Shown here: in pieces, positions 3,339 to 64,000 of the stretch
How the letters are laid out: each line of letters begins with the position of its first letter
How positions within the stretch are numbered: the first letter of the stretch is position 1
Assembly: GCA_003152105.1 (NCBI GenBank)
Contig: PLZJ01000002.1
Location: 597,682-661,681, forward strand
Length of the DNA stretch: 64,000 bases
Source: Candidatus Levyibacteriota bacterium
GTDB lineage: Bacteria > Patescibacteriota > Microgenomatia > Levybacterales > UBA12049
Direction of reading: 5' to 3'
Translations under genes and position numbers: made by a program
Notes under the pieces: model-generated
The model's database searches: none
The model's input: only the letters and a program-made list of their open reading frames with translations
Told to the model about the DNA's origin: nothing

Positions 3339-6300
3339 ATGAAAAAATATTTCTTGTTTGGCATTCTTTCTATTATTCTCACTACAATTTGGTTTCATAA
3401 AGGATTACTGATTGGACTTGGTGAATCTGGAGTTTCTTTTTATAATGTCAAAAATCAGTTAGCTATCACATCACATACATGGTCTCCTTTTGCTCTTGGC
3501 ATATTTCCAGGATTAACTATTTGTACTTTGCCATTATTTTATTTTGCAAATTTACTTTCACAAATAGGCATATCTGATGTGGGGACACAAGCTATTATAT
3601 TTGGATTATGTTTATTTTCGTCATTTATCGGCACAACGCTTTTGACGAATTATTTATTTGTCAAATCTAAAAATAAAGAAGTTATTAGTATATTTACTGG
3701 TTTATTTTATGGTTTAAATTTAGTATCTTTAGTTACAGCATGGAATAGATTGCAATATCCTTTCCTTTTTTTCTATATAGTAATTCCCTTTGCGCTCTAC
3801 ACGTTTATAAAAGCATGTGATCAAAAAAAATATGCTTATGCAATTCTCCTCAATGTAATCTTTTTAGTATTTTCTTCAGCATTCGCAGCCATTCCTTTTA
3901 TTGAACTAATATGGGGATTACTGCTGGCTTACTCTTTTTTTATTGTTTTAGTTAATTGGAAAAAAGATCCTTCAAAAGCGTTGTTTGCAATACTATTTTA
4001 TATACTTTCAGTTACTATCTGGGCATTATTTAATTCCTGGTGGTTACTTCAGATGATCAAAGCCATAGAAAGTGTTCTTGGTGAAAATGTGTACAGTATC
4101 AAAGGAGATATTGGAACACTGAATATTTTAAGTCAAGAACAAGGCAATTTATCTTTTGTATATAGATTAATGAATCAACAATTTTTTGATTCAATGAAAA
4201 CTGTATGGGGTAATTTTTATAATACGCCTCCATTTATAGTGATAAGTTATATTATTCCGTTTTTAGCATTTTCCCCCTTAATTATAAAAAAAAAGCCAGG
4301 TTTTATATATTTTTTCTTAGGACTTTCTCTTCTCGTAATTTATTTTATTAAAGGTTCAAATCCACCCTTTGGAGGAATATATCTATTTCTATTTTCACAT
4401 TTAAAAATATTTGAAGTGTTCTGTTCTTCATTTGAAAAATATGGCTTGGTTCTTCCGCTTGCATACGCTCCCTTAATTGGGTTTACGTTGTTACTACTAT
4501 TTACCACTTTAAAAAATAGTATTTCTGTTAGAAAGACTTATTTTATTTTTACATCTCTTGGTCTTTTACTTTTCGTAGTACTTGTTTACCCCTTTTGGAA
4601 TAATTTAATATTTACGTACAACTTACCGCCTGAAAATAACCCTTCAATAGGGGACTATGTTTCGGTTCCTATAGATTATCAAAGTGCAAATACTTTTTTA
4701 CACAAAGATACTGATATTTACCGGGGTATGGCATTACCAATAGATGGTGAAGGCATGACATATGAATGGAAATATGGATTTAATGGTGTTGAATATTTAA
4801 ATGATATGTTTGGTATACCTTTTCTTTCTTTAGGAACAAGTACAATTCCTAATCTACAAAATATTACCGATCAATTTAATTACACACTATTTAAGTACCC
4901 CTTCTCGTTTACAAAAATGATGACATTATTAAATGTAAAATATTTATTAGTTAGATCTGATATTGATTACAAAAATAGAAATACTACAAATCCACATATT
5001 CTTACCGACTATATTAATGGCAGGTCGATAGCTAACTTATCTTTTGAAAAGCAGTTTGGAAAACTCGCATTTTATAAAAATATGTCATTTATACCCAAAA
5101 TATATACTGCTAAAAATTTATTTGCAGCACCACAATCACTTTACTTTACCGATATATTTACATTAAATAACTTTCAAAACAAAGATGTTGTTGTAAATAC
5201 GAATGAAAATGAGTTTGGAGACAAATTGGCACAAAGTGCTTTATCTGAAACTATTTTACCCAAGAACGTTATAAATTCTGATCAAGTTCCAAAAATTACC
5301 CTAACACAAGCTGAACTTCAAATTCCCATGTCGAGGTATGGTGCTGATTCTCGATTTTTTCCACTAATTAGATTTAAAGAAAATCTCAGTAGATGGGGTA
5401 TTGTAGACAGCCAAGACAAATTATTATATGACATTAATATTTCATATAAGAGACTAGGAGAATTACAACGAATTGCATTAGCAAATAATCTAGTTGGAAT
5501 AGGTCCTGCTGAAAATGAATATATTTCCAGTTTAGGAATAATCGAAAAAACTATTAATTCTCAAGATAGTGCTACCTTGAGTGAAAACATCGACTCAATT
5601 AGAGCGCAATTTCTTGCTGAACAGGTTATATTAAATAATTTAATAAATTCTCTACATCCTGGAGGCATTAGATCTTCTTTGCAATCTACAAGAAGTGTAT
5701 TTACGGAATTTGAAAAACATATATATGTTATTTCTTTATACCCATCACAAATTAAAAATTCTATACAAAGTGAAAATATCTATCGGTTTATGGCCCCTTT
5801 GGATGGTAATTATCAAGTCTTACTAAGACAACTCAACTACCAGCAGTATTACAAAACGCAAAACCAAGTTACTATTCAAATTAACAACAAGATTATTATC
5901 GTTACTCCAACGTATAAGAACGGATTCATTTCATATGGGACATTTATGCTTGACAAAGGATTAAATGAATTCCATATTTTAACTCCGATAACACTAAATT
6001 TAATAAAGGAAAATTCTTCTTTGCCTCTTACACTTATTGCAACTTCCCAAAAAACTGAAATTAGAAAAACCTTTCATCTAAAAAATTTTGATCCATACTC
6101 ACAGTATGTTGCTTCGTTTGATTATAAAATCACAAACGGCGGAGGTGCAACAATCGAGGCAGAAAGCGATGTAGATGCGGTAAAAGATGGAAAAAATGTT
6201 CCCGAATGGAGTCAAGGAATAAGTGGTTCAGTTGGAAATTTTAATTGGCAACATGTCGCTTATAGAGTTTATCCATATCACACAGCCACAACGCAATCAA

Positions 6301-6839
6301 TCTCATTTGTTGTTAATGCAACTAACTCTTGCATTGCAGATAATCAACAAGATATGCGTTTGGTTAAAATGTGTAGTACAAATAAATCATTTTATACCAA
6401 ATATACTCATAATACTGAATTTATATTTAAAAATGTCAAACTTGAAAAAATCTTCCCATCTGACTTAATGCTTTTTAAACAAAATATGAAAACTACTGTA
6501 ATAAAAAACCCGACAATTACGTTTAATGAAATTAATGGTTCAACATATATAGTGCATATTAAAAATGCAATAAATCCTTATAATCTTGTTTTTTCAGAAA
6601 ATTTCAATCCAGATTGGCAAGTTATTTATAATAATGCGCAAATAGCCACCTCAAAACATTTCATGGTTAATTCATTTGCGAATGCATGGCAAATTGATAA
6701 AACTGGCACGTATAATATAACAGTTAGATTTCAAGATGAAAATCTATTTTTGTTTGGAAAGGTACTATCATTACTTTCTATAATTTGTTCAGTTAGCATT
6801 TTTACAGTCTATAAAATTTGGAAAAAGAAAAAAACATAA
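3339..6839 (+). CDS. YfhO-like polytopic membrane protein (GT-C-like architecture), 1166 aa
   Basis: About 12 N-terminal TM helices, roughly 700-aa extracytoplasmic region, C-terminal module FSENFNPDWQVIYNN...GTYNITVRF followed by a terminal TM helix. This topology and C-terminal motif are typical of the YfhO family. Confidence 0.45.
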   Translation: MKKYFLFGILSIILTTIWFHKGLLIGLGESGVSFYNVKNQLAITSHTWSPFALGIFPGLTICTLPLFYFANLLSQIGISDVGTQAIIFGLCLFSSFIGTTLLTNYLFVKSKNKEVISIFTGLFYGLNLVSLVTAWNRLQYPFLFFYIVIPFALYTFIKACDQKKYAYAILLNVIFLVFSSAFAAIPFIELIWGLLLAYSFFIVLVNWKKDPSKALFAILFYILSVTIWALFNSWWLLQMIKAIESVLGENVYSIKGDIGTLNILSQEQGNLSFVYRLMNQQFFDSMKTVWGNFYNTPPFIVISYIIPFLAFSPLIIKKKPGFIYFFLGLSLLVIYFIKGSNPPFGGIYLFLFSHLKIFEVFCSSFEKYGLVLPLAYAPLIGFTLLLLFTTLKNSISVRKTYFIFTSLGLLLFVVLVYPFWNNLIFTYNLPPENNPSIGDYVSVPIDYQSANTFLHKDTDIYRGMALPIDGEGMTYEWKYGFNGVEYLNDMFGIPFLSLGTSTIPNLQNITDQFNYTLFKYPFSFTKMMTLLNVKYLLVRSDIDYKNRNTTNPHILTDYINGRSIANLSFEKQFGKLAFYKNMSFIPKIYTAKNLFAAPQSLYFTDIFTLNNFQNKDVVVNTNENEFGDKLAQSALSETILPKNVINSDQVPKITLTQAELQIPMSRYGADSRFFPLIRFKENLSRWGIVDSQDKLLYDINISYKRLGELQRIALANNLVGIGPAENEYISSLGIIEKTINSQDSATLSENIDSIRAQFLAEQVILNNLINSLHPGGIRSSLQSTRSVFTEFEKHIYVISLYPSQIKNSIQSENIYRFMAPLDGNYQVLLRQLNYQQYYKTQNQVTIQINNKIIIVTPTYKNGFISYGTFMLDKGLNEFHILTPITLNLIKENSSLPLTLIATSQKTEIRKTFHLKNFDPYSQYVASFDYKITNGGGATIEAESDVDAVKDGKNVPEWSQGISGSVGNFNWQHVAYRVYPYHTATTQSISFVVNATNSCIADNQQDMRLVKMCSTNKSFYTKYTHNTEFIFKNVKLEKIFPSDLMLFKQNMKTTVIKNPTITFNEINGSTYIVHIKNAINPYNLVFSENFNPDWQVIYNNAQIATSKHFMVNSFANAWQIDKTGTYNITVRFQDENLFLFGKVLSLLSIICSVSIFTVYKIWKKKKT

Positions 6840-14491: not shown

Positions 14492-15330
14492 TAATACTTT
14501 CATATAACACAAAAGACTTGCTAACATCATGTCTTGACTCAATTAAAAATCATTTACATAAAGGTGATTTTGAAATAATTGTAGTAGATAATGCATCTTC
14601 AGACGATACTTCGTTAATGATCAAAAAAGAGTTTAAAGAAGTAATGTTAATTGAAAGTAAGGAAAATTTAGGCTACGCAAAAGGCATGAACTTAGGAGTC
14701 TCAAAAGCAAAAGGAGAATATTTACTACTTCTAAATTCAGACACGAAATTAAAAGATGATATTTTACCTCTTTTTTTGAATAACTATTCAACTTTTGAAA
14801 AACTTGCCGTAATTGGTCCAAGACTTGAGAATAGCTTAGGAAATAACGACGGTTCATATGGTAGCTTTTATACGATTTTTTCTGTATTTTATTTGTTATT
14901 TGGATCTCATTTTGTATCAAATAAAAATGAAGCAAGTCATAAGGCAAGATATGTTGATTGGGTCAGTGGTGGGTGTATGTTTATAAAAAGAGAATTGTAT
15001 GATCAAAATAATGGATTTGATCCACGTTTATTTATGTATGGCGAGGATGTCGAATTTTGTTACCGTTTGCATAAAAAAGGATTTAACGTTCTTTATGACC
15101 CATCGATTGTAGTATTTCATGTTGGCCAAGGAAGTTCAAATAGATCCTTTGCCATAATACAGATCTACAAAGGCATATTGTATTTCTTTAGAAAACATAA
15201 ACCAAAATGGCAATATGCGCTAATTTATTTCATGTTGAAATCAAAAGCAATTATACTTTTATCTATAGGAAAAATGTATAATAATGAATATCTCATACAT
15301 ACATATGGGCAAGCTCTTGCGATATCTTGA
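14479..15330 (+). CDS. glycosyltransferase family 2
   Basis: VSIIILSYNTKDLL...IIVVDNASSDDT, LLLNSDT (DxD). Confidence 0.75.
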   Translation: MVSIIILSYNTKDLLTSCLDSIKNHLHKGDFEIIVVDNASSDDTSLMIKKEFKEVMLIESKENLGYAKGMNLGVSKAKGEYLLLLNSDTKLKDDILPLFLNNYSTFEKLAVIGPRLENSLGNNDGSYGSFYTIFSVFYLLFGSHFVSNKNEASHKARYVDWVSGGCMFIKRELYDQNNGFDPRLFMYGEDVEFCYRLHKKGFNVLYDPSIVVFHVGQGSSNRSFAIIQIYKGILYFFRKHKPKWQYALIYFMLKSKAIILLSIGKMYNNEYLIHTYGQALAIS

Positions 15331-18300
15331 CAATAACATTGTTAAAATTGGAATTTGCTTTCTAATTCTTTTTGTCGCGCTTTATCCAAAGCTACCTAGC
15401 GTTCATATTATTCGTACGTATGTATATATTCGACTTGAAGATTTTGGAATAGCTGCGGTTGCTATAATTTGGTTCATTCAACTTCTTAGAAGAAAAGTTG
15501 GGCTGCCTCCAAAGTTGCTGGCTTTTCCTATAGTTTTATATTGGATAATTGGACTTGCATCCCTTATTGCCTCACTTTTATATTTCGGACCTCCCACGTT
15601 AAATTTTTTCCCACACATAGCATTTCTTGAATATCTAAGAAGAATAGAGTACATGATTTTATTTTTTATCGCGTTTTCAACAATTAAGAACAAAAAAGAT
15701 GTTAGAGATTATTTTTTTATTCTATGCACTACAGTACTTTTTGTTTGCCTATATGGAATTGGGCAAAAGTTCTATGGAATATTATGGTTACATTTCCCCG
15801 CGTTAAAGAGTGCAAATTTTTGTTTTCCTTCCTTTCAAACAGGTAACGAGCAATTTGCAAAAGGATATGCGCTTTGTTTGCCATCTGATGGAAGAATGAC
15901 TTCAACATTTGGAGGCCATTACGATTTAGCAGCATATATGGTATTTATTATTCCTATTTTAATCACTGTATTTCTTGTTGTTAAAAAAAGGAGAACACAA
16001 ATATTACTTGCTATTTTATCAGTACTATCTTTAACAATGTTAATTTTTACTTCTTCCCGCGTGTCGTTTATTGCTTATTTAGTTGGTGTTGTATCAGCGC
16101 TTATTTTCTTTAAGAAAAAATGGTTTATATTACCTGTTTGTATTGTAAGCATTGTTCTTCTTTTTGTGTTTAGTAGTTCTACGATAAAACGATTTGAACA
16201 AACAATCAGGTTTACCTCTGTTGTAACTGATAGTGAAGGAGACATTGTAGGGGAAGTTTCTAATGTGAATACAAATGGTAAAAAAGTGGTAAAAGGAAAT
16301 ATTCCATCGCAAGCACTTCCAGAAGGTTCAGTTATAATTGGACTTCCTACTAAATCTATATCTACTTCGTCTGCAACGGTACAAAATAGTCTTACTCCTG
16401 AGCAGGCAAGATTGCTTAGGCTACAAAATGGAGGCTATCAACTTTCCTCAGTTAAAGGAAGCTTCCTTATACAAAAAGTATTAACGCTTGATATTTCATT
16501 TACAACACGCTTCCAAGCTGAATGGCCTAGGGCTTGGAATTCATTTTTGACTGATCCGCCTCTTGGAACAGGGTTTTCAACATTAACTCTGGCAACTGAC
16601 GGTGATTATTTACGAATGCTTGGTGAATCAGGATTCTTAGGCGCAATTTCTTATTTGTTTGTATTTTTAATGTTAGGAATTGCACTTGCTTCTATATATA
16701 AAGATATTTCGTCTCCATTTAATAAATCGTTTATTATTGGAATTGCAGGAGGAATGATTGGGATATTTATAAATGCAATATTTATTGATGTTTTTGAAGC
16801 GTCAAAAGTTGCTGAAAGTATGTGGATGATTTTGGGAATTGGACTAGGTACACTACTTCTGTATCAGAAAAAGCCTATTCCATATGCGCTGCAGCTTAAA
16901 AATGTGTTGCTTACAAAAACTTTCTACTGCGTATATCTTCTAGCAATCGTTGCTGTAGTTTTTTCATCTTATATCTCCTCTTTCTTTGTTGCGGATGATT
17001 TTACATGGTTACATTGGGTAGCGACTTCTTCTTCATCAGATATTCTTCGTTTCTTTACTAACTCAAGCGGATTTTTTTACAGACCACTTGATAAAACTAT
17101 TATGTATTTTCTCTATACCTTATTTTCATTTAATCCTCAAGGATATCACCTATTTACACTCATTAGTCATCTTATTGCAGCAATAGGGGTATTTTTCCTT
17201 GCTCGAAAATTCTTGAAATATACATTTTTTAGTTTTATTGCAGGTGCTATATTTATACTTTTACCATCACAATCTGAAAATATCTATTGGATTTCAACTA
17301 TTTCAACTACAATTGCTACCTGTTTTATTTTTTACGGGTTATTAGCATGGATTAATTACTTAGAGAGTGAGAAGCAGAAATTTTACATACTATCCTTATT
17401 TCTTGGAATATGTTCATTTTTCTCTTATGAAATTGCAATTACTTATCCATTCCTGATCATATTAGTAACCCTATTTTTCAAAGGTAAGTCAATTCGTAAA
17501 AATGCTTACGCAGTATTTATTCCATTTGTAGCTCTTATTCCAATTTATTATATTATTAGAATCGTTACTCACGCTTTTTCTGGAGGAGGAGATTACTCTT
17601 ATAGTGTTATCCATTTATTGCCAAATATCATTGGAAATTATATAGGGTATCTTGGATTATATATTGTTGGAGAGCGCTTTATTTCACTATACAATCCACT
17701 TCGGTTGGTCTTTAAGAGTCAAATGCCACTTGTTATGATCCTGATTGTATTATTTATTCTTTTAATTGCATACGTTTGGTACTTTTATAAGAAACAAATT
17801 CAAAAAATTGTAGTTACGCAAACTGGTAAATTGTTTATTTTTGGCATGCTATTTATTGCAATTTCTTTACTATTATATTTAGGTCTTGGAAATATATCGC
17901 AACGATATGGATATTTAGGAGCATTTGGTTATTCACTTATAATAGCCTTATTTTTACAAAAAATTAGTCTGTTATTAAAAAATCCTTGGAAAATAATTAT
18001 TATGGCAATACTTCTCATATCTTTATTTACCTTTTATTACAATGAACAAAAAAGCGTTGAAGCTGAATGGTTAAAGGCAGCAAGTATTACAGAAGATACA
18101 TTAGCATTTTTCAGACTTGATTATTTCACTTTAAACAATTCTGACTCCGTTTATTTAGTGAATGTTCCAATTAAATATCAAAATGCCTGGGTGTTTCCAC
18201 TGGGCGTTTCAGATGCACTCTGGTTTTTATACAAAGATAACGAACCTAAATTAATAGAAGTAACTACAATTGCACAAGCGCAAAAAGATGCTAAAAACTT

Positions 18301-18373
18301 TTATAATACAAAATTATCTAAAGCATATATTTTCAGTTTTGGTGATGACGGCTATATCTACAAAGTCAAATAA
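15284..18373 (+). CDS. fusion membrane protein: O-antigen ligase/polymerase-like (Wzy_C) N-terminal half + GT-C-like polytopic C-terminal half, 1029 aa
   Basis: Wzy_C signature NSFLTDPPLGTGFSTLTLATDGDYLRMLGESGFLGAISYLFVFL at about aa 430-480. The second half has more than 10 TM helices with an ADDFTWLHW loop motif reminiscent of GT-C enzymes. Confidence 0.55.
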   Translation: MNISYIHMGKLLRYLDNNIVKIGICFLILFVALYPKLPSVHIIRTYVYIRLEDFGIAAVAIIWFIQLLRRKVGLPPKLLAFPIVLYWIIGLASLIASLLYFGPPTLNFFPHIAFLEYLRRIEYMILFFIAFSTIKNKKDVRDYFFILCTTVLFVCLYGIGQKFYGILWLHFPALKSANFCFPSFQTGNEQFAKGYALCLPSDGRMTSTFGGHYDLAAYMVFIIPILITVFLVVKKRRTQILLAILSVLSLTMLIFTSSRVSFIAYLVGVVSALIFFKKKWFILPVCIVSIVLLFVFSSSTIKRFEQTIRFTSVVTDSEGDIVGEVSNVNTNGKKVVKGNIPSQALPEGSVIIGLPTKSISTSSATVQNSLTPEQARLLRLQNGGYQLSSVKGSFLIQKVLTLDISFTTRFQAEWPRAWNSFLTDPPLGTGFSTLTLATDGDYLRMLGESGFLGAISYLFVFLMLGIALASIYKDISSPFNKSFIIGIAGGMIGIFINAIFIDVFEASKVAESMWMILGIGLGTLLLYQKKPIPYALQLKNVLLTKTFYCVYLLAIVAVVFSSYISSFFVADDFTWLHWVATSSSSDILRFFTNSSGFFYRPLDKTIMYFLYTLFSFNPQGYHLFTLISHLIAAIGVFFLARKFLKYTFFSFIAGAIFILLPSQSENIYWISTISTTIATCFIFYGLLAWINYLESEKQKFYILSLFLGICSFFSYEIAITYPFLIILVTLFFKGKSIRKNAYAVFIPFVALIPIYYIIRIVTHAFSGGGDYSYSVIHLLPNIIGNYIGYLGLYIVGERFISLYNPLRLVFKSQMPLVMILIVLFILLIAYVWYFYKKQIQKIVVTQTGKLFIFGMLFIAISLLLYLGLGNISQRYGYLGAFGYSLIIALFLQKISLLLKNPWKIIIMAILLISLFTFYYNEQKSVEAEWLKAASITEDTLAFFRLDYFTLNNSDSVYLVNVPIKYQNAWVFPLGVSDALWFLYKDNEPKLIEVTTIAQAQKDAKNFYNTKLSKAYIFSFGDDGYIYKVK

Positions 18374-53282: not shown

Positions 53283-54371
53283 ATGGCAGAATCTAAAAGT
53301 GAACAAGGAAGAAGTCCAAGAATAGATATTGTTGGCGGTGGAGTATCAGGATTAAACACAGGTATTGAAGCATTAAAAAGTGGAAAACAAGTAAGAATAT
53401 TTGAAGCTGAACCATACAATCCGACTTTAGCTCAAAATCCCGAGCAACAGAGAATCATCCGTAGGGCATCTGATGCTGGATCTGCACAGTGGTATCCATA
53501 CGTTGAAGGAGGTCTTAATAAAGGAGAGCAAGAAGATCAACTTCAGTGGATGGAGGATGCATTAGATAGTTATTTAGAAAGAGAAATTGTTGAAGGATAC
53601 AGTTCAGCAATGGCAAGACGAAGAAATTTTGAATTAATGAGGGATGCAGAGCCTATGCCAGATTATTTAAGAGGGATGCTCGAAAAGTTTGGCCCTGTAA
53701 AAGAATTTGGAGATGTTCCTAAGAATCCTCTTGAGTATTCTTATGGATATGATTTTACAACTCTTGCAATTAATTCACCTGCTATGCTAACAGCTTTAAG
53801 ACAGGAATTCAATGAGTTAGGAGGAAATTTTGTATCCAAAAAAATAGAATCTGCTGATGAATTTTATGAATTGCCTGGAGATGTATTAGTAAATTGTACA
53901 GGCCTTGGTTCATCTGAATTATTCCCCGATACAGGCTAAGAGGCTGTAAAGGGACATATGCTATTTTATAAAAATCCTGGAATAGATACTATTGTAAGCG
54001 CTGAGGATTTAATAGTTCTTCCTAGATCAGATAATTTGCTAGTTGTAGGAGCTTTATATCTTCATGAAGGAGACTATAGTACTGATGATCCAACTATTCC
54101 AGAAAGACAAGATATTCTTAAACGAATTAATCATATGATAGGAATTGATTTAAAGGAATTTGATCAACTAAAAGAGCAATTAAAAAAAGCAGAATATATG
54201 GGAGAAACTTCTGGTTTTCGTCCGTACAGAAAAGCAGGGACTTTAGTCACTGCAACTTCAGGACCAAATGACAAGATAGTTGTACACAATGTAGGACATG
54301 GGGGAATGGGATGGACACTAGCTGGAACCGGAAAAGCAGCACTTAGAGAGATTAATAAAGCATTGAAATAA
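53283..54371 (+). pseudogene. FAD-dependent oxidoreductase, DAO family (glycine / D-amino-acid oxidase-like), interrupted by in-frame TAA at 53937-53939
   Basis: IDIVGGGVSGLNTG dinucleotide-binding N-terminus in ORF 53283..53939; the C-terminal GHGGMGWTLAGTGKA motif is in the same frame after the stop (53958..54371). Read-through gives PDTG*EAVKGHMLF, matching the conserved PxKGQxL region. Confidence 0.5.
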
Positions 54372-57482: not shown

Positions 57483-57589
57483 AGTGAGATTATATCAAAT
57501 AACCAATATTTTCCTTTCGTACAATAGTTCTAATTGTCTCGAAAAGCACAGAATAGATCTCCGTACTTTGTTACGATATAATGCAATGT

Positions 57590-58228
57590 ATGGATATAAC
57601 TGAAAAAACAGCAATTCTTAGAAAGTTCTCAATATTTGGATCGTTATCAGATCAAGCCTTTTTAGATGTTGGAAGTAAGACGCACGAGATTGCAATAGAT
57701 GAGGGAAAAGTATTTATTAGACAAGGAGATACTGTAGGTCCTATTTATTTTATTTATAATGGCTTAGCAAAGATTTATAGATTAAATGAAAATGGAATGG
57801 TTGCTAATTTGGGATTTGCAGGAGAATTTGAAATAGTTGGAGATATGGCCTTTATTACTAGCCAAAACAGATCTGCATCGGTTGAGGCAATGCGTAAAGT
57901 TGACGCACTTGTCCTCTCTCCAGAAGATTTTAAAAATATATTATATGCTTATCCGGAAATCTCGATACAATTAATGCAAATTTTTTCTCAAAGACTTCGC
58001 AAAAGTAATGCTTCCTCTGAAGAAATGATGTTTCAAAACCTTACCCATAGAACCTGGATAGCGCTTGAAACATTAAGTAAATATTTTCCAGAAAAAAGCA
58101 TAACGCTTTCTCATGAAGAATTAGCAGAAATAGTCGGAGCAACAAGAGCACGAACAACAGAGGCGCTACATCAGTTACAAAAAGAGAAAAAAATACAGCT
58201 TTCTCATAGAAATATCCACATATTATAA
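57590..58228 (+). CDS. Crp/Fnr family transcriptional regulator
   Basis: cNMP-binding domain (FIRQGDTVGPIYFIYNGLAKIYR) plus C-terminal HTH (LSHEELAEIVGATRARTTEALHQL). Start at ATG 57590, 7 nt after TATAAT 57577-57582. Confidence 0.75.
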   Translation: MDITEKTAILRKFSIFGSLSDQAFLDVGSKTHEIAIDEGKVFIRQGDTVGPIYFIYNGLAKIYRLNENGMVANLGFAGEFEIVGDMAFITSQNRSASVEAMRKVDALVLSPEDFKNILYAYPEISIQLMQIFSQRLRKSNASSEEMMFQNLTHRTWIALETLSKYFPEKSITLSHEELAEIVGATRARTTEALHQLQKEKKIQLSHRNIHIL

Positions 58229-58280: not shown

Positions 58281-59204
58281 ATGATAAGCGAACAATATTT
58301 TTCAACTGAACGAAGTGGAGAAAGTCAACTATATGTTGAGATTGGAATAAACAATGCATTAGCGCATATAGCGGAAAACTTTGAACATAGCTCTAAGGGG
58401 TTAGAAAACTTACCTTTTCATAACACAGATCACACAAGGCAAGTTATGAGAAGAACCCAATTAATTCTCTCAACTATAAGTTCAGCTGATCCTACGCTTG
58501 TTTCTTCACAGGATATGCTTCTTGGTCAACTTGCAGCAGCTTTTCATGATTCAGAACAAAAATGGAAAAATAAAAAAGTGAAAACAGGAAATCAAGATAC
58601 ATTAATAAGAGAGCGCTATGGTGTAGGAAATGAAGTCATAAGCTGTGCTAATGCGGTAAACTATATGGTACATGTAAATGAAACAGAAGGTAAAGATATA
58701 TTTTCAAAAGATGATATTGAAACGGTTGTTGAGGCAATACTGGTTACAATACCTGTATTTGATCTAAGACATCAAACAGTTGCGCAACCAAATTTAAGCA
58801 ATAGGACCTCACTTGTAGCAAGGGCAGTAGCCTTAGCTGATCTTGGGTCTGCTGGGCTTGACGGGCTAGAAATGGTAAAGGAAGATAGTAAAAAATTATT
58901 TCGAGAAGAAAACTTAGATATTACCATACGACTTTCTGAAGATATTCCTTTAACAAAAGATGAGGAAAGCTTCTATAAAGATAGATATCTTAAATGGGTA
59001 AGTACGCAATATCCATTCGCAAAAGGAAGAAAAGACCTCTTAACTACTGAATTGGATGGAATTCCTCAACACGTCTTGCCTTATGTAGAAAGGCTTTTTA
59101 ATAAATTTGATGAAACTCTAGCTGGTTTAGAAAATATAACTGCTTCATATGCAGCACTCGAACCAAAAGAATTACTTGTTGAAGTGGGATATCATTTACA
59201 ATAA
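58281..59204 (+). CDS. putative HD-domain metal-dependent phosphohydrolase
   Basis: FHNTDHTRQV and AAAFHDSEQ His/Asp motifs; weak assignment. Confidence 0.35.
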   Translation: MISEQYFSTERSGESQLYVEIGINNALAHIAENFEHSSKGLENLPFHNTDHTRQVMRRTQLILSTISSADPTLVSSQDMLLGQLAAAFHDSEQKWKNKKVKTGNQDTLIRERYGVGNEVISCANAVNYMVHVNETEGKDIFSKDDIETVVEAILVTIPVFDLRHQTVAQPNLSNRTSLVARAVALADLGSAGLDGLEMVKEDSKKLFREENLDITIRLSEDIPLTKDEESFYKDRYLKWVSTQYPFAKGRKDLLTTELDGIPQHVLPYVERLFNKFDETLAGLENITASYAALEPKELLVEVGYHLQ

Positions 59205-61181
59205 TTTTCTATTTCGCAGTAACAACATCAAGCCACCCCAGATATATTCTGACAACACTACAGGAATTATTAGAAGTGCAATGAAAGTTGAAGGAGTAGT
59301 CAGAAGCAGAAAAATTCTGTTTAACAAGAGTTGTATTATTCCAAGCGGTGAATCATCTTTAATAGCATACGTAATAAAATTAGGTGAAGTACTACTCAGC
59401 AAAACTTGGTCATTACTGCTATCTTTACGCATAGAAAATTCCGTAATATATTCTTTGCCAGCTGACTGTGAAAGCGGAGGAAAATTAAATGTAAATTCTG
59501 GATCCTTAACATTTTCTACCATAACTGCTGAAGTCAAAGAGGTATAAATAATATGATGAGCATTATCGAGTAATTGAAATACTATGACTGCGTGACGACC
59601 ATTATTGCTTTGAATCTTATTGTTATCATACTGCAAGTGAAGCGCAATTGTATTTATATTATTGTTTTTGCCTGTAAAAGGGAATTCAATGGGATTTTTA
59701 CCAAGTGCGTATATTGAAGAAGGAGGAATATGATTTGGTTGAATCGAATACGTATCAACTAGTAATGACGCTGGATAATGCAGTGTATAAATACAAATAA
59801 TTAGCAATAAATAAACAGTCATTGTGAATGCCAGAAATGTAAAGCTTGGTGGTCTTGGTGTTGTGTCAATTTTTTGCTTACTACTTAACATTGTTTCTTT
59901 TGGTAAGCGTTTGTGATATGTAAAGTACAACTTATCGACAATATGATAGAGAAACCATGCAAGAAGAATTGAAAGTACTGTTGCAATGATAATTGTTAAA
60001 CAGAGATAAATTCCAAGAGGAAGATGGATAAGGGATAAGATCGAACTTGTCCAGTTTATTGCCTGCTCATGTGTTAAATATAATGTATAACTAATTACTC
60101 CTAAAAATACAAAAAGTTTTCTGTCAAATATTTTTTGTATAATACTTTTTGGAGTGATTGCCCCAATAATTGTCAATGCAATCACCCAGCTCGCAAACAG
60201 GAAATAATAATTATTTGCAATCTTATCTCCGGCATAAGGAAGGGAAACGTTTGCCCACTGGGTAAAAATAAGGAGTACAAGAGTAATAATTCCAATAATA
60301 TTGTTTTGTGCAAGCTTTTCTAATCTATTCCATAGTTTTCCTTGTTGCTGATAAATTGTGCCAATAGTAACTCCTGCAATAAAGCCACTTGAGTGGGCAA
60401 TATTTAAAACTATTAATGGGCTTTTAAACATTATAAATGCATTGTCTAAATCAAAAACAATTTTTGTAGTAAGCATTATAAGCAGTAGTCCAACAACCCA
60501 TCCCCATTTTTTTCCTACATATATAAGTGGGATTACAAAAAACGGATAAACTATATAAAAAAGTACTTCAACAGGTAAACTCCAGAATACATCATTTACA
60601 TTGAGTATAAATCCTGAAATAGGCCTTGTTACTGTAATATTTGCAAGAAGTGTTAAGACATTATGAAACTGTGTGCCTTCAGGATGTTGTGGCGCAATAG
60701 ATGGAAAAATAAAAACTAAATAGAAAAATACAGTGAGTTGTAGAATAACAAAACCCCAAAAAAGAATTTTCCCTATTTGTTCGTTTTTATCTGAGACTTT
60801 AATATATTGCCAAATAAAACGTATACCAAATGCTAAAACAAGTATTAGTATTATTTGTATTATCCAAGAATTTGCACGGTGTTCGAAGAAGAGAACCCAA
60901 AAAAAGATATTTGCTAATATAAGCATTGGAAATATTCTTGTATATCTTTTTTTAATAAATGATACAGGACTTTTAAGTGTTGGATAGAGAAAAGCCATCA
61001 GAAATCCTGTAAGTACAAAGAGGATTTGTACTGCATTTGAACCCGCAAAAGCAACACCATAAATGCTATAGATAATAGGACCAAATGCAAGAAGTACGAG
61101 GTTGTTATGAAGATGAGATAGCATTACGGAAATTGCTGCTAAGCCTCTTAACCCATCAAGTGCCGAAAGTCTTTTCTTCAT
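59196..61181 (-). CDS. acyltransferase family 3 (AT3, OafA/YrhL-like) membrane protein with a roughly 250-aa C-terminal extracytoplasmic domain and terminal TM helix
   Basis: LDGLRGLAAISVMLSHL AT3 start and 10-TM core. The C-terminal domain has no SGNH (GDS) motif and is unassigned. Confidence 0.7.
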   Translation of the reverse strand: MKKRLSALDGLRGLAAISVMLSHLHNNLVLLAFGPIIYSIYGVAFAGSNAVQILFVLTGFLMAFLYPTLKSPVSFIKKRYTRIFPMLILANIFFWVLFFEHRANSWIIQIILILVLAFGIRFIWQYIKVSDKNEQIGKILFWGFVILQLTVFFYLVFIFPSIAPQHPEGTQFHNVLTLLANITVTRPISGFILNVNDVFWSLPVEVLFYIVYPFFVIPLIYVGKKWGWVVGLLLIMLTTKIVFDLDNAFIMFKSPLIVLNIAHSSGFIAGVTIGTIYQQQGKLWNRLEKLAQNNIIGIITLVLLIFTQWANVSLPYAGDKIANNYYFLFASWVIALTIIGAITPKSIIQKIFDRKLFVFLGVISYTLYLTHEQAINWTSSILSLIHLPLGIYLCLTIIIATVLSILLAWFLYHIVDKLYFTYHKRLPKETMLSSKQKIDTTPRPPSFTFLAFTMTVYLLLIICIYTLHYPASLLVDTYSIQPNHIPPSSIYALGKNPIEFPFTGKNNNINTIALHLQYDNNKIQSNNGRHAVIVFQLLDNAHHIIYTSLTSAVMVENVKDPEFTFNFPPLSQSAGKEYITEFSMRKDSSNDQVLLSSTSPNFITYAIKDDSPLGIIQLLLNRIFLLLTTPSTFIALLIIPVVLSEYIWGGLMLLLRNRKLL

Positions 61182-61270
61182 AAAAACATCACACTATCGT
61201 AACATTCTAGTTTGGATAAATAAATATGCAATATAACTTTCTTTTTTGAAACCAATAAATTGTAGTAACC

Positions 61271-61299
61271 TTGACAATAGTCTCATTTGAGCCTACAAT
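61271..61299 (+). promoter_or_regulatory. consensus promoter TTGACA-17-TACAAT for the hexokinase-CYTH gene
   Basis: Hexamers at 61271-61276 and 61294-61299, 10 nt before ATG 61310 (the track start 61271 is the TTG inside the -35). Confidence 0.5.
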
Positions 61300-61309
61300 A
61301 AGCTCTTCT

Positions 61310-63007
61310 ATGTCTGCACTTCTCGAAAATGAAGCAAGTAGTAGTAGCATGGAGAAATTAGCCCCAGTTCCTTCTTCGTTGTTGTATTCAATAGATGATC
61401 TTAAGCGCTTTTCAGGTAATTTCCGAAATGAATTAGCAAGAGCTTGTAATGGTCAAGAAAGTAGTCTTTCAAATAACGCACATGACATCCCTTCGTTTTC
61501 TCATGTTAAAGAGGGTGAATATTTTCAGGCTTTTGTGGTTGGAGGAACAAATTATAAAACCGCCTTAATGCAAAGAACTGGTGAAGGTGCTAATTTGCTT
61601 GATGTAAGTAGATGTGTAATAGGACCTTCGGCAACTGATGTTGATATTATTACACTTATTACAGCTAGTATTGATCCAAGGTCAACAGTAGTAGGTTTAA
61701 ATTTTGCATTTCCTATGAAGCCGGTTGATAGAGACGGTGTATTAGATGGCATACTACTTGGTGCTACTAAGGAACGAAAGTTTAAAAAATATATTGGCCA
61801 AGAGATAGGAAAAGTAATTGAAGATGAAATAGTTAGGATTCATGGTCGTAAAATCAAAGTTACGGTTGCAAATGATACAGCTTGCCTTGCGATTGCTGGA
61901 ATAGAAGGAGATAATGCGAATAAAATTGCCGCTGGAGTTGTTGGAACTGGTTTAAATTTTGCAATTAGCCATCAAGGTAAAATCATAAATCTTGAATCAG
62001 CAAATTTTGATAAATTTGAACAAACTGAAACGGGTAGGCAAATAAACAGAGAATCAAAAGCAAAAAATAAAGCTCTCTTTGAAAAAGAAGTATCAGCTGG
62101 TTATCTTTATTTACATCTTAAAAAGATCTTAGAATCAGAAGGAGAGGACGCCTCGCATATCACAAGTACTGAAGATGTAAGTATCATCGCCTCAGCGAAT
62201 GATGGAAGTAAGGCATCTGAATACGCAAATACACTTCTTGAGAGATCTGCATCACTTGTTGCTGTTCAGATTGTTGCAATTTACGAATTCATGGAGCAAC
62301 CACAAATAACAATGGTTATGGAAGGCAGTTTATTTACAAAGTCTCCTCGATATAGAAGTCATGTTGAAAGATATCTTAAAGAACTTGGAGTACCAGAAAA
62401 TGGAGTTATGTTCCAAAGTTATCAAGAAAGTGATCTATTAGGTGCTGCCAAACTTGCCGCAATTGAAGAAACTACCATGTCTTTTCCAGAAACAGTTCCA
62501 ATGGAAGAAATTGAGAGTCGATTCTTACTTTCAGATATTCCCGAAGATTTACAAAGTGCAATACGATGTGGAAAAATAGAACAAATGCAGCAAGGATATT
62601 TATCAAGTTCAGAAAGAATTAGAAAAGTAATATATGAAGGGGGATTAACGCTTTACACGATTGTTGATAAAAAACCAGTACCGGGAAAACCAGATTATGT
62701 TAAGGATGATGAACCAATGGTGATTGGAAGAGATGAGTTTATGAGAAAATGGAAATTAATTAAAGGGTATCCAATTTTCAAAACCAGATTTCTTCTCGAT
62801 AATTCCGCGGTTGAGCCTCATAAGGGAAAAATTGTTATTGATAGTTTTGAAGGAAAATTTAATGATATAAATCTAATTGAAGTAGAGTTCGAATCATTAG
62901 AAGATTGTGACAGTTTTGTTCCATTGTCATGGTTTGGACCAGAAGTAACGCAAACTGTCTCAAGTAGTAAACTAGCGCATAACAATGCTCGAGTACCTCA
63001 ATTGTAA
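61310..63007 (+). CDS. eukaryote-type hexokinase (PF00349/PF03727-like) fused to a C-terminal CYTH triphosphate-tunnel domain
   Basis: Hexokinase motifs in order: AFVVGGTNYK, LNFAFPM, AAGVVGTGLNFAI, INLESANFDKF, VMEGSLFTKSPRYRSHVERYL, LLGAAKLAA. C-terminal EEIESRFLL (ExExK/R) and IVIDSFEGKFNDINLIEVEFES are CYTH hallmarks. Confidence 0.75.
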   Translation: MSALLENEASSSSMEKLAPVPSSLLYSIDDLKRFSGNFRNELARACNGQESSLSNNAHDIPSFSHVKEGEYFQAFVVGGTNYKTALMQRTGEGANLLDVSRCVIGPSATDVDIITLITASIDPRSTVVGLNFAFPMKPVDRDGVLDGILLGATKERKFKKYIGQEIGKVIEDEIVRIHGRKIKVTVANDTACLAIAGIEGDNANKIAAGVVGTGLNFAISHQGKIINLESANFDKFEQTETGRQINRESKAKNKALFEKEVSAGYLYLHLKKILESEGEDASHITSTEDVSIIASANDGSKASEYANTLLERSASLVAVQIVAIYEFMEQPQITMVMEGSLFTKSPRYRSHVERYLKELGVPENGVMFQSYQESDLLGAAKLAAIEETTMSFPETVPMEEIESRFLLSDIPEDLQSAIRCGKIEQMQQGYLSSSERIRKVIYEGGLTLYTIVDKKPVPGKPDYVKDDEPMVIGRDEFMRKWKLIKGYPIFKTRFLLDNSAVEPHKGKIVIDSFEGKFNDINLIEVEFESLEDCDSFVPLSWFGPEVTQTVSSSKLAHNNARVPQL

Positions 63008-63103
63008 TGTAATCAAATTGACAATTTCTTGATTAAATTCTAGTGTATAATTAGAATGTATTGATGAGTTCTTATAGATTTTTTATCGTTGTAATATAAG
63101 AAA

Positions 63104-64000
63104 ATGGAACAAAATGCAAAAATACCTCGACTTAAAATGCTTGACGGGATTCGAGGCATTGCAATTTTGCTTGTCGTCTTAACTCATGTAAATCCAACGT
63201 TTATCCTATCTTCTCTACCTTTGTTTATAAAGCCATATGTTGCGTTAGTTTTTACAAGTGGCGTTACAGGAGTTAGTTTACTTTTTATTTTATCTGGATT
63301 TTTTATGGGATATATTTACCCAAATCCAGTAAGTACATTACATTTTCTCCAAAAAAGATACACAAGAATTTTTCCTCTTTTTTTAACAATGTGTGTATTT
63401 ATGTTACTAATTCGTAATTTGCCAAATTTAGCTTGGTACTTGCAGATTAGCTACATTCTTATACTTGCATTAATAACAAATATATTCTGGGTATTTATCA
63501 TTAAGAGAGTTATACAATCAGCTAAGTTTTCTAAAGGTATTTTTATTTCATTTTTAATTATTCAAGCACTCGTTGCTTGTTTCTACGCTATATGGATTAT
63601 GAGACATACACCACTTTACTTTAATCAACAGTTGCCAGTCTATATTCGAGAAGGTACGATCGGACTAGTAAATGCAACGCTTACTCTTGGTTTGGGTAAT
63701 TATGTTCCAATGTTAGATGGGGTTTATTGGAGTTTGGCATCGGAAGTATTGTTTTATATTTTATATCCAATTGTCGCAGTGCCATTAATTGCTCTAACTT
63801 TAACAAAAGGAAAATTTACAAAGCTATTATTTATTGCAACATTTATACCACTTTTTGTAGGAATATATTTAATTTCTCATAGGCTAGCGGTTTTGAGTAT
63901 ATTCCAATTTGAATTATTCTTTTATTTTGTAACGGGAATTAGTCTTGCATATTTTTATCGACTACACACTACTAAATTTGAAAAAGTTACAAGTTTTTTT
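63104..64000 (+). CDS. acyltransferase family 3 (AT3) membrane protein, 3' end outside window
   Basis: MLDGIRGIAILLVVLTHV start, YWSLASEVLFYILYP motif, multiple TM helices; open to window end. Confidence 0.65.
   Translation, partial: MEQNAKIPRLKMLDGIRGIAILLVVLTHVNPTFILSSLPLFIKPYVALVFTSGVTGVSLLFILSGFFMGYIYPNPVSTLHFLQKRYTRIFPLFLTMCVFMLLIRNLPNLAWYLQISYILILALITNIFWVFIIKRVIQSAKFSKGIFISFLIIQALVACFYAIWIMRHTPLYFNQQLPVYIREGTIGLVNATLTLGLGNYVPMLDGVYWSLASEVLFYILYPIVAVPLIALTLTKGKFTKLLFIATFIPLFVGIYLISHRLAVLSIFQFELFFYFVTGISLAYFYRLHTTKFEKVTSFF

Follow-up and report, generated by a model that had tools for sequence, protein, structure and literature searches.

The stretch of DNA analysed here (64,000 nucleotides, positions 597,682 to 661,681 of contig PLZJ01000002.1 of Candidatus Levyibacteriota bacterium, in the following referred to as the window) carries near its right end a gene for a protein of 565 amino acids (aa), in which a hexokinase-family sugar kinase is followed by a CYTH domain of the triphosphate tunnel metalloenzyme (TTM) type. 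This hexokinase-CYTH combination is a new domain architecture composed of two known families, and it was found once. In this uncultured, Microgenomates-like member of the Patescibacteria with a small, metagenome-derived genome, the gene probably represents a genuine, lineage-specific fusion, in which a single polypeptide is predicted to hold two autonomous active sites, one of an ATP-dependent hexose kinase and one of a triphosphatase resembling NeuTTM of Nitrosomonas europaea. The gene and its parts are located as follows.

61310..63007, + strand: complete open reading frame (ORF) of the fusion protein, 565 aa plus stop, starting from ATG
61370..62461, + strand: hexokinase-family (ASKHA) sugar kinase domain, residues ~21-384
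61868..61879, + strand: A-N-D-T block with the presumed catalytic base Asp189, residues 187-190
62462..62476, + strand: five junction codons ATT GAA GAA ACT ACC (I385-T389), connecting the hexokinase C-terminus to Met390
62477..62980, + strand: complete CYTH/TTM module, residues 390-557
62507..62521, + strand: ExExK-type metal/phosphate motif, E400-I-E402-S-R404 (EEIESRF)

The covalent joining of the two parts, as claimed in a preliminary description of the locus, was borne out: both lie in a single, uninterrupted frame of 565 codons. Three Pfam families had been proposed there as a check. PF03727 (Hexokinase_2) scored above its cutoff (63.4 bits, cutoff 24; E 2.7e-17), whereas PF00349 (Hexokinase_1) remained marginally under it (23.5 bits, cutoff 24.3; E 5.4e-5) and the CYTH family PF01928 gave no match. 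A phmmer search against PDB sequences assigned the N-terminal part to structures of human HK3, HK1 and glucokinase (E 5e-8 and weaker). The AlphaFold2 model of the kinase reached a predicted local distance difference test score (pLDDT) of ~95 over residues ~21-385, and its 50 best Foldseek matches in the PDB were exclusively hexokinases and glucokinases (E ~1e-21 to 1e-18), with rice HXK6, human GCK and AtHXK1 leading (E ~1e-21, target-normalised TM 0.65-0.70).

The signature blocks of eukaryote-type hexokinases occur in the order given in the preliminary description and the GGTN block is exact (G78-N81), but five blocks are looser than they had been written: LNFAFP stands for FxFxFP, VGTGLN for IGTGxN, INLESANF for INxExGxF, MEGSLF for DGSxY and SDLLGAAKL for GSGxGAA. 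Across an alignment of 120 family members D189 never varies, and N188 and T190 hardly do. The A-N-D-T block lines up with VNDT of human HK1 and HK3, and we take Asp189 to be the catalytic base, following the established hexokinase literature. All invariant residues of the 120-sequence alignment are kept (G78, G79, G147, D189, G212, G214, N216, N227, S249, E258, S313, G339 and G378), and the glycines of the ATP phosphate loops (G78/G79 and G212/G214) are thereby present. Furthermore, T153/K154, N188/D189, N216, E229 and E258, all invariant or nearly so in the 120 relatives, are present and align with the glucose-contact residues of human HK1/HK3, the catalytic Asp among them. Residues ~21-384 most likely constitute an ATP-dependent hexose (glucose) 6-kinase, as predicted from these motifs. 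The eukaryotic hexokinases and glucokinases (human GCK, HK1-3, AtHXK1, rice HXK6) have the same fold, the same Pfam families and, according to the alignment, the same catalytic and glucose-binding residues; the fusion kinase differs from them by an identity of ~20%, by being ~100 residues shorter and by its C-terminal CYTH domain.

The preliminary description considered this type of hexokinase uncommon in bacteria. We found at least 261 relatives among the candidates scored in a large protein collection, and a scan of GTDB, with one genome per species, revealed 123 loci with a short hexokinase. Microgenomates-type Patescibacteria thus have many members of this short hexokinase family, and the earlier statement needs a qualification; across the candidate phyla radiation (CPR) as a whole, however, hexokinase is rare and upper glycolysis is unconventional (PMC7304191). 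The 119 best relatives after the query comprise 343-403 aa, are 35-42% identical to it and cover 61-66% of its length. Those with a name belong to Levy-, Curtiss- and Microgenomates-type Patescibacteria, and the 80 retained of the 123 GTDB loci include Roizman-, Levy-, Curtiss-, Woese-, Gottesman-, Davies- and Beckwithbacteria. Short Patescibacteria hexokinases of ~355 aa (Roizman-, Levy-, Curtiss-, Woese- and Gottesmanbacteria) show ~35-43% identity over residues ~24-384 and have the same invariant residues and the same C-terminal boundary as the fusion kinase. Unlike the fusion, every member listed is kinase-only.

In two of three relatives examined the hexokinase gene is located among genes for phosphoglucose isomerase (PGI), fructose-bisphosphate (FBP) aldolase, phosphoglycerate kinase (PGK), fructose-bisphosphatase (FBPase) and trehalose-6-P synthase, and in the third beside carbamoyl-phosphate synthase and pyrimidine genes. 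In contrast to these metabolic surroundings, the fusion gene is monocistronic and lies between two AT3 acyltransferase genes, by a cell-division/cell-wall cluster. As a side observation, many GTDB contigs with a Patescibacteria-type hexokinase (L007, L012, L013 and others) are titled 'uncultured Gammaproteobacteria', 'Pseudomonadales' or 'Leptospirales bacterium' (third-party annotation, TPA, assemblies). Such titles contradict the Patescibacteria titles of the closest relatives and are probably placeholder or erroneous labels.

The C-terminal part of the protein, residues 390-557, is a complete CYTH/TTM domain despite the Pfam miss. Its folded core starts at about residue 398 (residue numbers of this module are the C-terminal index plus 385). 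Two CYTH hallmarks had been pointed out before, and both the motif EEIESRF and the distal acidic strand (IVIDSF...IEVEFES, with D511, E524 and E526) were found on invariant columns of the CYTH alignment. In a phmmer search against the PDB, residues 398-549 matched NE1496 of Nitrosomonas europaea (2FBL/3TYP) with E 1e-7. When 1.84 billion representative proteins were scanned exhaustively with HMMER, 483 CYTH relatives were found at E<=1e-3; NCBIfam had nothing relevant for the CYTH part, and a word-indexed search for homologues gave nothing when only the C-terminal 180 aa were used. The query's domain and the 33 top relatives were combined in a family alignment of 34 rows, 20 of which match PF01928 individually, while the query's row does not. 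The profile of this alignment matches NE1496 at E 1e-45 and recovers more than 6000 proteins, most of them with a precomputed PF01928 assignment; 'CYTH domain-containing protein' and 'adenylate cyclase' are among the source names of its matches.

An AlphaFold2 model of the CYTH module, based on a 100-sequence alignment, showed eight beta-strands with a mean pLDDT of 84.7. Together with the kinase model (~95) it confirmed the two folded domains for which structure prediction had been suggested as a check, each in a separate model. Foldseek placed NE1496 first (7e-10), followed by AtTTM3, a Bacillus anthracis CYTH protein and human thiamine triphosphatase (ThTPase), with Cet1 and the vaccinia capping triphosphatase as further matches. 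Residues that are invariant in both the 34- and the 100-sequence alignment are all kept in the query (E400, E402, Q428, Y430, R436, R438, K454, K491, R493, E524 and E526), and so is D511, a residue that does not vary in the 100-sequence alignment and hardly does in the other. The preliminary description had held that the lack of a CYTH hidden Markov model (HMM) match for residues ~390-565 would speak against the domain. With Pfam such a match was indeed lacking, but the sequence match in the PDB, the family profile, the eight-stranded model and the conserved tunnel residues override the miss, and the CYTH assignment therefore stands.

Vogt et al. described three motifs that discriminate between CYTH classes (PMC8233210). 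Class IV adenylyl cyclases (AC-IV) carry HF four residues before ExExK, a small residue instead of the first Arg of RxR, and ExA, while thiamine triphosphatases have W or Y two residues before RxR (PMC8233210). In the CYTH module of the fusion the HF position reads E-T, the RxR region reads S-E-R-I-R, with Ser434 and with both R436 and R438 kept, and the second Glu of ExE is kept as well (E526, not Ala). A class IV adenylyl cyclase (CyaB/AC-IV) was rejected, as there is no HF and both R436 and E526 are kept; a thiamine triphosphatase was rejected, as Ser434 occupies the position where W or Y is required. With no HF, a small Ser434 and both Arg residues and ExE kept, the module groups with NeuTTM and CthTTM in the 'TTM' triphosphatase class. 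CyaB-type AC-IV enzymes (Aeromonas hydrophila AC2, Yersinia pestis AC-IV) belong to the same CYTH superfamily, but their determinants are missing here: HF is absent, and the gate-keeper Arg and the second Glu of ExE are kept.

NeuTTM, the product of NE1496, is a specific inorganic triphosphatase without cyclase activity, for which a catalytic dyad Tyr28/Lys52 was proposed (PMC3440374). It is the best match of residues 398-557 in sequence as well as structure (2FBL, 3TYP) and belongs, with CthTTM, to CYTH cluster 2. The two proteins share the acidic (ExEx, D, ExE) and basic (RxR, K, KxR) residues and the Tyr/Lys dyad, Y430/K454 of the fusion corresponding to Tyr28/Lys52. NeuTTM is a stand-alone protein of ~150 aa, whereas in the fusion the CYTH domain is the C-terminal part of 565 aa. 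Identity between the two is only ~25-30%, the Lys of ExExK is replaced by Arg in the fusion, and the fusion has an insertion of ~10 residues (PVPGKPDYVKDD) that is common to the closest metagenomic homologues. According to its residue pattern, the CYTH module is predicted to be a NeuTTM-type, metal-dependent inorganic triphosphatase, which possibly acts also on short polyphosphates or nucleoside triphosphates (NTPs).

A kinase and a CYTH domain on one polypeptide are also found in Arabidopsis TTM1/TTM2 (PMC8233210). There, however, the kinase is a P-loop, uridine-kinase-like enzyme and not an ASKHA sugar kinase, and AtTTM1/2 lack ExExK and ExE and act on pyrophosphate, while the CYTH module of the fusion keeps the full triphosphatase motif set (PMC8233210). 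The CYTH partners listed by Iyer and Aravind are HD hydrolase, exopolyphosphatase, nucleotidyl kinase and CHAD, and hexokinase is absent from this list of known fusions (PMC8233210). TTM1/TTM2 and these fusions set a precedent for the recruitment of CYTH beside phosphotransfer or polyphosphate enzymes.

The preliminary description knew of no described hexokinase-CYTH architecture, and our searches, of which the best 120-150 matches each were considered, revealed no other instance either. A second fusion was absent from the 120 best hexokinase matches in the large protein collection, all of which comprise 343-403 aa, and from the 150 best CYTH matches, in which the domain follows a kinase in the query only. 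Almost all of the latter are stand-alone proteins of 150-200 aa, and in the few long ones the domain is N-terminal or internal. No second fusion was present among the 120 best profile matches (all 150-217 aa), among the 80 GTDB loci retained, where matches to the query stop by residue 405, or in a scan of JGI metagenomes, which gave three distant kinase-only loci. The search for the same fusion in relatives, which had been suggested earlier, thus came out negative, with kinase-only or stand-alone CYTH proteins among the matches listed. A literature search for hexokinase together with CYTH retrieved irrelevant co-mentions only.

The junction gives hints on the origin of the fusion. The C-terminus of every hexokinase relative coincides with the residue that aligns with A384 (...GAAKLVA-stop). 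Starting from M390, the fusion protein aligns end-to-end with a stand-alone 169-aa CYTH protein (P0122) from its Met1 onwards (E 2e-27; the alignment begins with MSFPETVPMEEIESRF in the fusion versus MSPERAESQREYERRF in P0122). The C-terminal part hence looks like a whole CYTH gene with an apparent initiator of its own, 15 nt past the natural end of the hexokinase. Since the CYTH part keeps its own Met five codons after this end, the fusion most probably arose by loss of a stop codon between two tightly packed adjacent genes, with the hexokinase upstream of CYTH; codons 386 and 387 (GAA) are each one substitution away from TAA. Residues ~385-397 have low pLDDT in both models, which fits a flexible tether of ~13 residues between the modules. 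The two domains were modelled separately, so the interdomain geometry is uninformative.

A foreign origin or a chimeric assembly of the CYTH half was also considered. The GC content of the halves is 0.36 (kinase) and 0.34 (CYTH), the GC content at third codon positions (GC3) 0.19 and 0.21, and these values match the genome. Codon usage of both halves resembles that of local genes, in this frame only and along the whole length. Both possibilities were rejected on grounds of composition and codon usage. At the junction itself the frame runs on without a break, and neither a homopolymer nor a frameshift signature is seen.

Several observations weigh against a genuine fusion with two active sites. 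PF01928 did not match the whole protein (E<=1) or the isolated C-terminal 180 aa (E<=10). The Lys of ExExK is Arg (R404). A CYTH-family HMM was run by hmmsearch on the six-frame ORFs of 89 loci and the window, and a CYTH gene was found within 5 kb of the hexokinase in 0 of 88 related loci; the query alone was matched, both in the window and in the locus L001 that carries it. The gene context of stand-alone CYTH relatives gave no link to a sugar kinase either. With no conserved hexokinase-CYTH neighbourhood, comparative genomics therefore lends no support to a functional link. The fusion was seen once, and the three contigs that carry it apparently stem from one sample and provide no independent confirmation of the absent stop codon. 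As a singleton in one data set, the fusion therefore allows no estimate of its age, and its reality rests on that data set. Finally, the presence of inorganic triphosphate (PPPi) in such cells is an assumption.

The restriction to one sample raises the question whether two adjacent genes are really present, with a stop at about codon 385-389 and CYTH starting from M390, and TAA being read as GAA by a base error or in a minor allele. Such an artefact or polymorphism would explain why the CYTH part has retained a start Met along with a full N-terminus laid out as in stand-alone homologues, and why GAA codons 386 and 387 are a single substitution away from TAA. Moreover, a lone in-frame TAA breaks a DAO-type gene in the same window, which shows that stops can differ by a single base in this assembly or genome. 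We nevertheless consider this explanation unlikely. Substitution errors are rare in a deep consensus, the identical 565-aa product is recorded on three contigs, and the continuous frame at the junction is free of homopolymer or frameshift signatures; even as two genes, so tight an adjacency would be unique among the 88 related loci. A different reading accepts the fusion but regards one half (a dead kinase or a dead CYTH) as a decaying relic, with a single activity left. Recent chance fusions often lose one function, and the Lys-to-Arg change in ExExK departs from the canonical motif. This Arg is, however, common to 9 of the 33 closest homologues in the 34-row alignment, neither half has lost a catalytic or invariant family residue, and both are predicted to fold with high confidence, so that a relic appears quite improbable.

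The opposite view is a functional coupling, in which the CYTH tunnel would bind tripolyphosphate or short polyphosphate and either donate a phosphoryl group to the sugar or allosterically gate the kinase, depending on polyphosphate or triphosphate status. The covalent, short linker and the apparent constraint on both halves, with all catalytic residues kept, are in agreement with it, as are known fusions of CYTH to nucleotidyl kinase and exopolyphosphatase (PMC8233210, citing Iyer and Aravind) and the patchy occurrence of hexokinase in CPR with their unconventional upper glycolysis (PMC7304191). On the other hand, no ATP-site motif of the family is missing from the kinase and nothing points to a changed donor, TTM chemistry is hydrolysis or cyclisation and not transfer to a second active site (PMC8233210), and signals of co-evolution or gene neighbourhood are missing. 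A singleton with an uninformative AlphaFold interdomain geometry offers no basis for interdomain contacts, and coupling of this kind is doubtful. The roles considered in the preliminary description (tripolyphosphate as phosphoryl donor, a coupled product or a regulatory module) found no support here. That the fusion is both adaptive and mechanistically coupled, with a sugar kinase driven or gated by inorganic tri- or polyphosphate via the attached tunnel, has a low probability. In a further scenario the protein would be a sugar-sensing class IV adenylyl cyclase, its CYTH domain producing cAMP that a Crp-family regulator encoded at 57581..58228 would read. Many CYTH homologues are annotated as 'adenylate cyclase' in their sources, and the regulator (cNMP_binding and HTH_Crp_2) is encoded 3 kb upstream. 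Regulators of the Crp/Fnr type are widespread, and cAMP is not a necessary ligand for them. The CYTH module fails each of the three AC-IV determinants that were published (HF, first RxR Arg, ExE; PMC8233210), and NE1496 as the nearest solved relative is a specific triphosphatase (PPPase) without cyclase activity (PMC3440374). A cyclase is therefore very improbable.

We favour the genuine fusion with two autonomous sites. In such a protein the kinase module would phosphorylate hexose with ATP, and the CYTH module would hydrolyse PPPi to pyrophosphate (PPi) and phosphate (Pi). A divalent metal would be held by E400/E402/E524/E526, and the Tyr430/Lys454 dyad and a basic wall of the tunnel would take part as well. 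The sole certain consequence of the fusion is that both modules are, by necessity, co-expressed 1:1 and co-localised. Specific PPPases have been proposed to act as 'metabolite proofreading' enzymes (PMC3440374). The most plausible benefit would be of this kind, namely the local removal of PPPi, a strong chelator of Mg2+ and other divalent cations and an ATP-like polyanion, near a kinase that depends on Mg-ATP.

What bacterial CYTH/TTM triphosphatases of the stand-alone kind do physiologically, and what inorganic triphosphate itself does, is still an open question (PMC3440374, PMC8233210). A natural fusion can serve as a 'Rosetta stone' hint, and the present one, if genuine and adaptive, nominates a Mg-ATP-dependent sugar kinase as partner of CYTH and is a cheap experimental handle on the role of these triphosphatases. 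Should the coupled reading be true, glucose entry would be tied to polyphosphate status in a minimal-genome episymbiont, and inorganic triphosphate would have its first defined physiological partner. In metagenome-assembled genomes, fusions seen only once are often neutral or wrong; should the present one be due to neutral accident or faulty assembly, the locus would be an ordinary one with two known enzymes. The locus also points to the populous short hexokinase family in Microgenomates-type CPR, a group for which hexokinase was reported to be rare (PMC7304191).

Transcription signals and neighbouring genes of the fusion gene are the following.

61271..61299, + strand: sigma-70-type promoter-like site, TTGACA-17 nt-TACAAT, 11/12 positions matched
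59196..61181, - strand: divergent AT3 membrane acyltransferase, 661 aa, PF01757 at 4.2e-24
63104..64000 (runs off the window), + strand: second AT3 acyltransferase, PF01757 at 1.9e-21

The consensus promoter that the preliminary description ascribed to the gene was found again, with 11/12 matching positions, as the top promoter-like site in a 5-kb scan (59000-64000). Between the -10 element and ATG 61310 there are 10 nt, and a Shine-Dalgarno-like sequence is not visible before this ATG. As the -10 element ends so close to the start codon, the fusion mRNA may have a very short leader or none and be essentially leaderless. A TTG-extended form of the ORF would begin at 61271, where the TTG coincides with the first base of the promoter-like site, and an in-frame ATG at 61349 (M14) is a second candidate start.

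Both AT3 genes named earlier as neighbours are present (PF01757 4e-24 for the divergent upstream gene, 2e-21 for the downstream gene), and the scan showed no terminator-like site between 63007 and 63104. The downstream gene is complete in the locus L001, where it encodes 668 aa. The AT3 genes are described here as neighbours, and a functional link to the fusion gene would be hypothetical. The two AT3 proteins (661 and 668 aa) look paralogous, each with an extension of ~250 aa past the AT3 domain; these extensions have no Pfam match and hence are not the SGNH domain usual in OatA/OafA-type enzymes.

The exact 565-aa product is recorded on three contigs of ~1.14-1.15 Mb in NCBI and ENA, all apparently from one sample (WOOD18-1, SAMN07125042). 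Eight neighbouring proteins, including FtsZ, were tested, and all of them form singleton clusters at 90% identity among ~15 billion sequences. Close relatives of the host lineage have therefore not been sampled, and the loci obtained by a hexokinase-pattern scan of GTDB species representatives did not include the host.

The rest of the window (G+C ~32%) is a cell-division/cell-wall cluster with genes for a penicillin-binding protein (PBP) transpeptidase, Mur ligases, GlmS, FtsW, FtsA and FtsZ. A scan of the window revealed no tRNA genes and no Rfam families. The window also encodes a DUF4012 protein, and DUF4012 genes likewise flank the hexokinase in two related loci. For two very large ORFs (3339..6839, + strand, 1166 aa, and 15284..18373, + strand, 1029 aa) Pfam gave no match at E<=1e-5. 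The broken DAO-family gene, for a FAD-dependent oxidoreductase (53283..54371, + strand), is split into ORFs of 218 and 137 aa by the TAA at 53937-53939 and could be a pseudogene, a strain polymorphism or the result of a base error.

The gene for the Crp-family regulator (cNMP_binding and HTH_Crp_2; 57581..58228, + strand) lies ~3 kb upstream of the fusion gene. It is followed after 52 nt by an ORF of 307 aa that extends to 59204 (+ strand) and has no sequence match in Pfam or the PDB. Inspection of this ORF by eye points to H...HD-like motifs (FHNTDH, AAFHDSEQ) that recall HD phosphohydrolases, and a possible cyclic-nucleotide or phosphohydrolase module at a distance of 2-3 kb from the CYTH domain is suggestive.

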